From Escherichia coli (lineage in GTDB: Bacteria > Pseudomonadota > Gammaproteobacteria > Enterobacterales > Enterobacteriaceae), in assembly GCF_045037415.1 (NCBI RefSeq), contig NZ_CP173438.1: a stretch of DNA of 64,000 nt; one strand, given 5' to 3'. Of the stretch, positions 36,001-39,000 are shown piece after piece (positions within the stretch are counted from its first letter, which is position 1; each line of letters opens with the position of its first letter). Position numbers: made by a program.

Positions 36001-39000
36001 TGAACCAGGATATCGATGAACTGCATTTTGCCCCGTTGAAAATCGACCAGCAACTGGCAACCGTAGCTGTGATTCACCAGCAGCATATGCGCAACATTGC
36101 GCAGTGGTTGCAGGCAAACGGCATCACCCGCGCTACCGTCGCGCCGGACTGGATGTCCATTCCTTGTGGGTTTATGGCTGGCGATGCGCGACGGGTTATC
36201 TGCCGCATCGATGAATGCCGGGGATGGAGCGCCGGGCGGGCGCTGGCTCCGGTCATGTTCCGCGCACAGCTCAATGAGCAGAATTTACCGATTTCACTAA
36301 CCGTGGTCGGCATTGCACCGGAAGAACTGTCTGCATGGGCTGGTGCGGACGCGAACGCCTGACCGTTACGGCTCTGCCCGCCATTACCACTTATGGCGAA
36401 CCGGAAGGGAACCTGCTAACAGGGCCGTGGCAGCCTCGTGTCAGCTACCGAAAACAGTGGGCGCGCTGGCGGGTGATGATTCTGCCGATATTGCTGATTC
36501 TGGTTGCGCTGGTAGTGGAACGGGGCGTGACGTTATGGAGCGTCAGCGAACAGGTGGCGCAAAGCCGCACCCAGGCGGAGAAACAGTTCTTAACGCTATT
36601 CCTGGAGCAGAAGCGGATTGTGAATTTACGCTCTCAGATGACGATGGCGCTGAAAAAATATCGCCCACAGGCCGACGATACCTGGCTGCTCGCAGAATTG
36701 TCAGCGATCGCCAGTACCCTGAAATCAGCGTCACTTTCCGACATCGAAATGCGTGGTTTCACCTTTGATCAAAAACGCCAGACGCTTCACCTTCAGCTAC
36801 GGGCTGCGAACTTTGCCAGCTTCGACAAACTGCGTAGCGCACTGGCGGCAGATTATGTTGTGCAACAGGACGCGTTACAGAAAGAGGGTGATGCGGTTTC
36901 CGGCGGCGTAACGTTGCGGAGGAAATAACATGTTACGCGATAAATTTATTCACTATTTTCAGCAATGGCGTGAACGCCAGTTAAGCCGTGGCGAACACTG
37001 GCTGACACAACACCTGGCGGGGCGTTCTCCGCGTGAAAAAGGCATGTTACTGGCAGCGGTAGTGTTCCTGTTTAGCGCCGGATATTACGTCCTCATCTGG
37101 CAGCCGTTGAGCGAACGGATAGAACAACAGGAGACGATGTTGCAGCAGCTGGTGGCGATGAACGCGCGACTGAAGAGCGCCGCGCCGAATATTATTGCGG
37201 CGCGAAAATCCGGCACGACAACGCCAGCACAGGTATCGCGGGTCATCAGCGACAGCGCTTCCGCGCACTCTGTGGTCATCAAACGGATTGCCGAGCGTGG
37301 GGAGAATATTCAGGTCTGGATAGAACCTGTGGTGTTTAATGACCTGCTGAACTGGTTAAAGGCGCTGGATGAAAAGTACGCGCTGCGGGTGGCACAAATT
37401 GATGTCAGTGCGGGTGAGAAGCCTGGGATGGTGAATGTGCAGCGACTGGAGTTTGGGCGGGGGTAGGTATTGCCATTTCCTTAACCCCACCTGATAACCC
37501 TTAGCCCAATGGTGAGTGCGGAACTGTCAAACCCGCTCACCGGGCTGAGTTTCGATGTAGCAAGAATTATCTCCCTCCAGACCACCACGGAATATTCGGT
37601 AACACTGAAGGAACCTGTTTTTCACCATGTAGCCTTCGTTAATCGACACCTTTCTCAGACTGTAAAGTTGCTTAAGTGTTTTGACACATTATGATTATTA
37701 ATAGTTGTAATAAATCATTGAGTAACAATTGATAGGCCAAAACATATAGGATAATTCTAGTGTGATCTGTATTTTGTGTAACCTGGAAGTTAGTAAAATT
37801 CCTGGAGATAATCAGAAAGGGAATTTCAAATAAGCATAATAATTTCCAGTGAAACTATTCGTCGATTTTAAGAAATGTCTGCTCAGGTATATCTACTGAG
37901 GGATGGTGTTGGTTGTAACACTGGTTAAAATAAACACACAAAAATAATCAAGATGTATATTTTAATCGACAAAAATAATTACTCACGGAATTATTGATGG
38001 GTGTTAAATAACACCGTTTAAATGTGATGTAAATCACAAATGTGACTGTAAAGAGGGTGCTGTAGATATAAATAAGAAGTACATGAGTGAATTTTAAATA
38101 GGGAAATAGTTTCTTGCTAAACAATTTATTGGTAATCAATCGCATGCGTTCTGGTTTGAGATAGATTACAGGTGTTACTACGCATAAAATTCATGGGTGG
38201 TATTATAATCAAGTAGTTAACAGTAATAGTGAAAAATAATTTCTTGCGAAATTAGCGGCCCGTTTTGAATAAGTGTGTTCCGGAGTAATCCAGAACGCAT
38301 GCTGCTTTACATCTTTTTCAAGCCATATTGGTTAAGCAAAAAGAAGTAGAAATAATTTCCTGAGAAATTAACTCAACATTCTGAAACGGCCAGTTTTCTG
38401 AAATTACCAGAAGACCGAATACATTCATGCCTGAAGAATGGATTAGAAGAAACGAGACGGAAATAGATCTATTTATCCCTGCGGAAATAATTTCTGCTGA
38501 AATTGTTTGCGGCTATTAAAAAGGTCAAACCGTCTGACTAAATTTTATCCAGTTACAAACAAGTATTACCTCCAGTGTATTGGTAGCTGTTAAGCCAGGG
38601 GCGGTAGCATACCTGAAGAGAATAGGATCACATCACCAAATGGCAAGAAGTGGATTTGAAGTCCAGAAAGTCACCGTAGAGGCATTATTTCTACGAGAAA
38701 TACGAACACGCTTTGGTAAGTTCCGTCTGGGATATCTGTGGGCGATTCTCGAACCCTCTGCGCATTTGCTGATACTGTTGGGCATTTTTGGTTACATTAT
38801 GCACCGCACGATGCCAGACATCTCGTTCCCGGTGTTTTTACTTAATGGCCTGATTCCCTTTTTTATCTTTAGCAGTATCAGCAAACGTTCTGTAAGTGCT
38901 ATTGAAGCGAACCAGGGGCTGTTTAATTATCGCCCAGTAAAACCCATCGATACGATCATTGCGCGCGCCCTGCTTGAGACGCTGATTTACGTTTCTGTTT

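Follow-up and report, generated by a model that had tools for sequence, protein, structure and literature searches.

Transcription of region 3 of the group 2 capsule (kps) locus of Escherichia coli starts at promoter PR3 (also called P1), with a published start site 741 nt 5' of kpsM in K5 strains. The leader that follows this start moderates how much transcription arrives at kpsM, and it has been reported to contribute to thermoregulation. In the enteroaggregative E. coli (EAEC) strain 042, a CRP site of this leader, listed at -492.5 from kpsM, was verified by ChIP-seq, electrophoretic mobility shift assays and reporter assays, and the spacer of this site together with its flanks forms the -10 element (TATAAA) of a second promoter, P2, which is repressed by CRP (PMC12360894). 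Footprints of H-NS at PR3 cover -135 to -21 and +141 to +219, and repression at 20 °C depends on the downstream one as an essential site (Xue et al. 2009, as summarized in PMC8960920). Here we analyze the same leader in a 64,000-nt stretch of an E. coli genome (contig NZ_CP173438.1 of assembly GCF_045037415.1; the window) and describe six copies of a palindromic motif with the core AATTTC-N4-GAAATT, which we tentatively read as operator-like DNA sites.

The group 2 capsules, among them K1, K5, and K2, rank as key virulence factors in extra-intestinal E. coli. The leader of the region 3 promoter is unusually long, and for most of it no mechanism or defined cis-element has been assigned so far. 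Publications on kps regulation from 2017, 2022 (a review), 2025 and 2026 (a preprint) do not mention the repeats described here; a prior description in the primary study of the leader (Xue et al. 2009) is possible.

Six In-Register Copies in the kpsM Leader

The array lies in the AT-rich, 1,173-bp intergenic region between the end of yghD (a gspM homologue) at 37466 and the kpsM start codon, an ATG at 38640 and not at 38642. When 18 Escherichia leaders (78-100% identical) were aligned, the column of position 37783 gave a leader of exactly 741 nt in strain Nissle 1917 (K5). This reproduces the published length, so the motif had been placed in the right region by the initial annotation of this DNA, which assigned it to the kpsM leader. 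With 37783 taken as the transcription start site, all six copies are transcribed, from +55 to +726. The leader and the copies are:

37783-38639, plus strand: 5' untranslated leader of PR3/P1, 857 nt here (alignment to the Nissle K5 leader, which matches the published 741 nt)
37837-37860 (+55 to +78), plus strand: copy 1, TAATAATTTC-cagt-GAAACTATTC, one core mismatch
37973-37996 (+191 to +214), plus strand: copy 2, AAATAATTAC-tcac-GGAATTATTG, two core mismatches
38104-38127 (+322 to +345), plus strand: copy 3, AAATAGTTTC-ttgc-TAAACAATTT, the most degenerate copy
38234-38257 (+452 to +475), plus strand: copy 4, AAATAATTTC-ttgc-GAAATTAGCG, exact core
38350-38373 (+568 to +591), plus strand: copy 5, AAATAATTTC-ctga-GAAATTAACT, exact core
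38485-38508 (+703 to +726), plus strand: copy 6, AAATAATTTC-tgct-GAAATTGTTT, exact core

These copies stand in register (family D1 of the repeat finder), with copy-to-copy spacings of 136, 131, 130, 116, and 135 bp. The six copies, taken together with their orthologues, give AAATAATTTC-N4-GAAATTATTT as the consensus, and the conserved unit of about 22-24 bp is longer than the roughly 20 bp first proposed. The core is exact, with perfect 6-bp arms, at 38238, 38354, and 38489 (copies 4-6), while copies 1, 2, and 3 depart from it at 1, 2, and 4 of the 12 core positions, respectively. All five positions given in the initial annotation proved to be in-register members of one family, including the copy with its core at 37841, which has one mismatch, and the degenerate copy at 38104, whose 10-mer AAATAGTTTC still agrees at nine of ten positions. 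The copy at 37973-37996 had been missed, and the last three copies, thought to be about 120-130 bp apart, are separated by 116 and 135 bp. The left end of the element can also be read as GAAAT-A-ATTTC, giving three alternating GAAAT half-sites in two overlapping palindromes. Copies 3 and 4 of the window share the spacer TTGC.

A further unit may precede the array, although we hold this assignment with low confidence:

37708-37731, plus strand: possible degenerate seventh unit, c0, TAATAAATCA-ttga-GTAACAATTG, forming inverted repeat I2 with copy 2

It lies 129 bp 5' of copy 1, upstream of the transcription start site, and each of its arms matches at 6 of 10 positions.

Chance occurrence was assessed with shuffles of the whole window and with 2,000 dinucleotide-preserving shuffles of the 1.17-kb intergenic region alone. 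The exact core AATTTC-N4-GAAATT occurs three times against 0.02 expected from the whole-window shuffles. The intergenic shuffles predict 0.003, 0.0125, and 0.235 occurrences at up to 0, 1, and 2 mismatches, where 3, 4, and 5 are observed, and none of the 2,000 reached the observed counts. The 10-mer AAATAATTTC is found three times exactly and six times with at most one mismatch (0.21 expected), and it is nearly absent from 8 kb of region 2 DNA with 30% GC in the same window. The idea that the motif recurs at a frequency expected of AT-rich DNA, raised at the outset as a refutation, is therefore not borne out.

Constrained Arms and Hypervariable Centers

Nucleotide diversity (pi) was determined by site class from the alignment of 18 leaders. 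The core arms, with a pi of 0.041, vary less than other leader positions (0.095; p = 4e-4) and less than 4-fold degenerate sites of kpsM (0.129; p = 1e-6), while the 4-bp centers, with a pi of 0.278, vary more than both (p = 1e-7 and p = 0.003, respectively). The per-position profile averaged over the copies consists of conserved blocks at positions 1-9 and 14-21, a hypervariable 4-bp center, and variable edges. The arms are under purifying selection and are functionally constrained.

For copy 1, pi is 0.053 and 0.056 in the arms and 0.338 in the spacer; its core mismatch, an A·C opposition in the stem, is kept in 17 of the 18 leaders. The spacers of copies 2 and 3 occur as eight and nine different tetramers, and the 5' arm of copy 3 is invariant in all 18 leaders, as are both core arms of copy 6. 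Only in the Esc9/JJ1886 lineage does a 10-bp insertion break up copy 5.

The known CRP site of the leader allows this profile to be compared with that of a verified operator:

38023-38038, strand not assigned: CRP operator TGTGAT-gtaa-ATCACA, a perfect consensus at about +241, 48 bp downstream of copy 2

The -492.5 coordinate in EAEC 042 corresponds to 38030.5 here when the extra unit of the window is counted. The operator has the 6-4-6 geometry of the array copies, with a pi of 0.009 in the arms and 0.315 in the spacer. Since a verified CRP operator shows the same profile, the pattern marks a DNA operator at this locus, and transcription factors do act within the leader. The spacer of the window, GTAA, changes the -10 element of P2 to TGTAAA, with loss of the key A at the second position, and, judging from the sequence, this haplotype probably has a weak P2 or none. 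Other lineages have ATAA, GAAT, CTTA, or TGAA as the CRP-site spacer.

The hypervariable centers (pi 0.28-0.32, including 38029-38032) might reflect hypermutable palindrome centers, selection that tunes affinity or promoter elements embedded in them, or recombination between copies. A perfect palindrome, GGTGTT-aaat-AACACC, directly follows copy 2 at 38000-38015; it is specific to the haplotype group of the window, its arms have a pi of 0.19, and it is probably not a conserved element.

Distribution and Copy Number

A survey of 5,426 complete E. coli genomes found the leader in 1,721 of them, 78-100% identical and at a median of one place per genome. This distribution is not that of a dispersed repeat of the REP, BIME (bacterial interspersed mosaic element), ERIC, or MITE (miniature inverted-repeat transposable element) type. 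A CRISPR array, with its spacers of 30-40 bp and usual neighborhood of cas genes, was likewise rejected: the apparent spacers here measure 92-112 bp and are homologous between strains, and the array sits between yghD (gspM) and kpsM.

A search anchored on KpsM in 100,044 species genomes, one per species, yielded 38 loci, and the motif was found only in the three Escherichia loci among them (E. coli E69, E. whittamii, and Escherichia sp. E1V33). It was absent from those of Pantoea, Mixta, Rahnella, Yersinia, Kluyvera, Phytobacter, Enterobacter, Citrobacter, and others, and the kpsM leaders of these other genera contain no comparable internal repeats. Their lengths are 310-870 bp, save for two fragmentary contigs and a 1,673-bp region in Phytobacter diazotrophicus. 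Divergent KpsM variants (P0007, P0018, P0033, P0066) occur in other contexts, where the motif was not found. Conservation across kps loci, which had been proposed as a check, therefore holds for the constrained arms of the 18 Escherichia leaders and fails for the kpsM leaders of other genera.

Within the 64-kb window, the motif was found neither in PR1, 5' of kpsF (about 55841-56400), nor anywhere else outside the array. Metagenome and viral collections searched with the exact 21-mer GAAATAATTTCNNNNGAAATT returned one E. coli kps leader (L108) and isolated single matches in unrelated AT-rich contigs; the isolated matches are due to chance.

The number of copies differs between haplotypes by one unit:

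38234-38349, plus strand: 116-bp unit present or absent between haplotypes (alignments and spacing table; breakpoints ambiguous within the shared AAATAATTTC)

In the K1/K5-type leaders (Nissle, EC69, ETEC4075, and others), which are closely related, a stretch of exactly 116 bp is missing between copies 4 and 5 and a hybrid copy remains; this shorter form accounts for 19 of 30 evenly sampled E. coli matches. Six copies are found in every divergent lineage, i.e., the group of the window, LF82, VG38, and Rb-50, as well as Z0117/E69, Esc9/JJ1886, E. whittamii, and E1V33, so that parsimony favors six as the ancestral number. The 741-nt form common in the literature would then be a derivative with one unit deleted. 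Six-copy leaders measure 853-868 nt and five-copy leaders 734-741 nt, with 843 nt in E. whittamii owing to a 12-bp deletion, and the spacing between copies is almost free of insertions and deletions across lineages.

The surrounding genes are annotated in the identical region of NCTC86, comprising gspL-yghD, kpsM-kpsT, a region 2 of the glycerophosphotransferase type, and kpsSCUDEF on the opposite strand. Just upstream, an open reading frame for an IS4-family transposase (33812-35161) is inserted in the gsp operon for type II secretion; in NCTC86, gspK is truncated and gspL is frameshifted.

Operator-Like DNA Sites as the Favored Reading

The copies may be operator-like, sequence-specific DNA sites in the kpsM leader for a putative dimeric protein, a tentative reading to which we give somewhat less than an even chance. 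As between DNA and RNA, we favor on balance, with moderate confidence, protein binding to duplex DNA. The grounds include, besides the marginal hairpins and the profile of the CRP operator, that the constraint is on sequence and not on complementarity, with a hairpin-specific signal that is nearly nil, and that copy 2 lies in a segment footprinted with DNase I, which is protein-bound and required for thermoregulation. We infer that selection acts on the binding of a protein to the DNA duplex, that the binder would be dimeric, and that binding would affect transcription.

Each site would be a palindrome of about 22 bp, AATAATTTC-N4-GAAATTAT, with half-site centers 10 bp, i.e., one helical turn, apart. 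A dimeric protein, probably of the helix-turn-helix type, would contact the two arms and not the 4-bp center. Up to six such sites, one every 116-136 bp, could be occupied between the P1 start and the following element:

38573-38611, plus strand: JUMPstart/ops element, the RfaH loading site (Rfam RF01707, 53.6 bits), 3' of the entire array

Because the sites are upstream of ops, occupied ones would affect RNA polymerase ahead of RfaH loading. They might serve as roadblocks to the elongating polymerase or as anchors of a higher-order nucleoprotein complex, and their occupancy would contribute to the published damping of transcription toward kpsM. Loss of a unit in K1/K5-type strains and the variable centers could tune the effect. 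A more far-reaching version, which we regard as speculative and rather unlikely, is that a dedicated regulator other than H-NS, SlyA, IHF, CRP, FNR, Fur, MprA, and LrhA loads along the whole leader and gates the polymerase that reaches ops and RfaH. This would add a separate layer of group 2 capsule control in Escherichia, tuned between lineages by the centers and by the polymorphism between five and six copies.

To name a binder, the copies were compared with the consensus sequences of CRP, FNR, IclR, NagC/Mlc, SlyA, the H-NS motif, IHF, Fur, Lrp, and the ARG box. The copies do have the geometry of CRP and FNR sites, with inverted hexamers, a 4-bp spacer (6-4-6) and a span of about 22 bp; these proteins are rejected on their half-sites (TGTGA and TTGAT, respectively), as the copies read AATTTC and the consensus scans match other positions. 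The IclR box is a 15-bp palindrome, TGGAAATNATTTCCA (PMC8222616, Table 1); only copies 5 and 6 come near it, with 2 and 3 mismatches, and the window contains 3 matches against 4.9 expected. The NagC/Mlc operator is a quasi-palindrome built around a central base, in which TT/AA do not vary at positions +/-5 and 6 (TT-N9-AA; PMC4288165), an odd symmetry that is incompatible with the even palindrome of the array, which has no central base.

For SlyA, a 12-bp palindrome resembling TTAGCAAGCTAA, the one match (9/12) falls on copy 3 of the window and hinges on the strain-variable spacer. The high-affinity H-NS motif TCGWTWAATT matches no copy at up to two mismatches, and the H-NS footprints include copy 2 and skip copy 1. 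The sole exact match to the IHF consensus WATCAANNNNTTR (38207-38219) is beside copy 4 and outside it, the best Fur match (13/19) needs upstream hexamers that are lacking at other copies, and the Lrp and ARG-box consensuses do not track the copies. Consensuses of Fis, MetR, LysR (T-N11-A), and the RcsAB box, compared by eye, do not fit all copies. MprA has been reported not to bind PR3. The candidates suggested in the initial annotation (SlyA, H-NS, IHF, and MprA) are thus not upheld, and its statement that no named regulator could be assigned agrees with the result for the known E. coli consensuses tried. The absence of the motif from PR1 also argues against regulators common to PR1 and PR3.

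The IHF match (AATCAAGTAGTTA), exact over the core consensus, begins its stretch on the upstream side of copy 4, at a distance of 14 bp, and is kept in most leaders; no role of IHF at PR3 is established in the literature. The best Fur-box-like 19-mer of the region, AATAAGCATAATAATTTCC at 37829-37847, overlaps the 5' arm of copy 1; Fur is reported to bind PR3 at a site overlapping that of FNR.

Several observations weigh against operator-like sites. None of the E. coli regulator consensuses compared fits the copies, and a literature text search for the motif gave only eukaryotic STAT6 sites. PR1, although co-regulated with PR3, does not have the motif. The spacings correspond to 11.05-12.95 helical turns without a consistent phase, which speaks against strict looping between neighboring sites. 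Among the six window copies, the 5' extension AAAT is mismatched at 1 of 24 positions and its mirror at 8 of 24 (p = 0.023), an asymmetry not expected of a symmetric dimer. The spacers exceed synonymous sites in variability (p = 0.003), which is more than simple neutrality would account for. All copies are in transcribed DNA and in sense-strand orientation, as RNA elements would be, and seven of the eight transitions in the core stem give G·U and not A·C on the mRNA strand. As for the dimeric-operator reading put forward in the initial annotation, the pattern of conserved half-sites around a fixed spacer of free sequence, with a CRP-like profile, is best fitted by it, while binding itself stays putative and no binder can be named.

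RNA Hairpins and Other Explanations

The transcription of all copies in one orientation and the transitions that give G·U favor RNA hairpins, a possibility that we consider unlikely. The copies would then act as weak, A/U-rich stem-loops (AAUUUC-N4-GAAAUU) that steer pausing, decay, or temperature-dependent folding before RfaH is recruited, in keeping with the reported contribution of the leader to thermoregulation. The whole leader indeed folds better than its shuffles (-217.7 versus -184.4 +/- 7.2 kcal/mol, z -4.6), and copy 6 is a stable predicted hairpin, the only one among the copies (-12.1 kcal/mol, z -3.4, probability 1.0 in context). The local hairpins of copies 1-5 are marginal, at -0.8 to -5.2 kcal/mol and with non-significant z values for copies 1-4, and the partition function of the full leader at 37 °C gives local hairpin probabilities of 0.00 for copies 1 and 3 and 0.03 for copy 5. 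Predicted folding is moreover not diagnostic here, since the CRP operator, a verified DNA site, is predicted to fold as RNA with a probability of 0.96 in the full leader.

Of covariation, the mark of base pairs maintained by compensatory change, there is almost none despite the long divergence of the paralogs. Over 44 distinct instances, 79.8% of cells are paired as compared to 77.9% after partner shuffling, and the covariation score is equalled in 61 of 500 shuffles. The sole compensated pair, A-U to G-C, is a single event confined to copy 3, the other copies having A-T, and the stem mismatches of copies 1-3 are conserved and not repaired. RNAalifold (covariation term -1.55) recovers the local hairpin of copy 6 and misses those of copies 1-5, and in half of the leaders a change from U·G to U·U breaks the extended stem of copy 6. 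A long-range duplex between copies 4 and 5 in the same prediction was set aside because any two palindrome copies could pair in this way and the spacers give it no support. The bias toward G·U was also rejected as a test for RNA: in the leader background A>G changes are twice as frequent as T>C, so the bias is not significant (p~0.13). Rfam gives only the JUMPstart element and two sub-threshold chance matches, with no family covering the repeats. No intrinsic terminator or attenuator was detected, with 0 terminator-like sites in 37400-38700.

Hairpins at the position of copy 6 are not confined to Escherichia. Leaders of Pantoea and Mixta (L012-L016, L044) contain a different, conserved hairpin, GCTGAA-N3-TTCAGC, about 130-150 nt upstream of kpsM, at a position homologous to copy 6, which can be counted in favor of RNA hairpins. 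The homologous spot reads tgctgaaattgtttgcggc in E. coli and tgctgaaatattcagcagc in Pantoea, which suggests an origin of copy 6 in an older stem-loop that was re-registered. Apart from the copies, a 16-nt inverted repeat with 94% complementarity (GCATGCGTTCTGGTTT at 38142-38157 and AATCCAGAACGCATGC at 38287-38302) flanks copy 4 on both sides and dominates the predicted fold of the leader. Its 3' arm lies in the 116-bp variable unit and is missing from K1/K5-type leaders, so five- and six-copy haplotypes should fold differently.

The palindromes could also seed a filament or bridge of H-NS, with or without SlyA or StpA, that silences PR3 at 20 °C and slows elongation at 37 °C; we judge this quite improbable. 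The downstream footprint, essential for repression at 20 °C, contains copy 2, and the upstream one contains c0. H-NS prefers tracts of the AATT or ATAAT type, as found in the arms, and the spacing of about 130 bp recalls the two separated high-affinity sites of the proU downstream element. Copy 1, however, is a better motif than copy 2 and sits in the unprotected gap between the footprints, and TCGWTWAATT does not coincide with the copies. A preference for AT tracts also leaves unexplained the letter-by-letter conservation of the arms, including G and C, and the fixed 4-bp gap, and PR1 is also controlled by H-NS and SlyA yet has no motif.

A functionless relic of an old tandem amplification of a ~130-bp unit, with loss and gain of units by recombination between copies as its main consequence, is very unlikely. 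The regular spacing and the exact one-unit deletion polymorphism fit such an origin, and the 310-870-bp leaders of other genera do without the array. Identity of the motif-anchored flanks is about 0.12-0.53 against a null of 0.28, i.e., mostly decayed to background; units 1/2 (0.53) and 2/4 (0.50) are above the 99th percentile of the null (0.475) and other pairs are at background. Tandem Repeats Finder detected nothing in the region. These data suggest that a ~130-bp unit may have been amplified in tandem long ago, with flanks now largely decayed. The paralogous arms retain the same letters despite this decay, and their conservation exceeds that of the surrounding leader and of synonymous sites two- to threefold, next to hypervariable spacers. 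Drift or gene conversion would not produce this pattern, as spacers and flanks are not homogenized, and the copies are kept in all divergent Escherichia lineages. The functional constraint on the arms leads us to reject a pure relic.

The least probable explanation, which we give hardly any credit, is that AATAAT in the 5' half, present in all six copies with five of six matches to TATAAT (A at -11 and T at -7), provides strand-specific -10-like elements acting as sigma70-dependent pause signals or weak internal promoters before RfaH, since, although the 5' extension is better conserved than its mirror and P2, with its -10 embedded in a palindrome, exists in this leader, copies 1 and 2 are not significant promoters (a 440-bp fragment with both lost most activity on mutation of only P1 and P2; PMC12360894), promoter-like matches are not enriched in the region (5 versus 4.5 expected), and the conserved 3' arm and fixed spacing stay unexplained.

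Comparison With Known Systems

The array, conserved and periodic from +55 to +726, offers defined targets for mutagenesis and for capture of binding factors, and thereby a handle on the length of the leader. The natural five- versus six-copy polymorphism provides a ready comparison between major pathogenic lineages. A new binder, if there is one, would be an extra regulator of a heavily studied virulence locus; if the copies instead act in the RNA, they would form an unusual multi-hairpin leader device.

The finding is solid but locus-specific, and the mechanism is a putative one. The kind of feature, an array of operator-like palindromes or of leader hairpins, is already known; what is unusual is the lack of a matching regulator, together with hypervariable centers and a periodicity of about 130 bp over the entire 857-nt leader.

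Among repeats in general, the REP/BIME and ERIC elements are also short palindromes in intergenic DNA, and an ERIC unit measures about 126 bp. The array differs from them in being AT-rich and not GC-rich and in its lack of dispersal, with the leader occurring once per genome. The JUMPstart/ops element and multi-site structured mRNA leaders are comparable in that their cis-elements, too, precede the first gene of a polysaccharide operon within a long leader. JUMPstart is widespread, whereas the repeats of the array are specific to Escherichia, are upstream of ops, match no Rfam family, and show almost no covariation. The core of the IclR box recurs as GAAAT-A-ATTTC on the left side of copies 5 and 6, but the GG/CC flanks of the box are missing in the copies and the box leaves out the conserved 3' arm.

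Two parallels come from the same leader. The downstream H-NS element of PR3 is protein-bound DNA 3' of the start site that is needed for regulation, and copy 2 lies inside it; its footprint, however, ignores the motif, and H-NS requires no spaced dyad. The CRP operator differs in its half-site (TGTGAT instead of AATTTC), in being a single copy and not one of six periodic copies, and in having a known binder. It shares with the array copies the form of a 6-4-6 palindrome in a transcribed leader, with conserved arms around a hypervariable 4-bp center.

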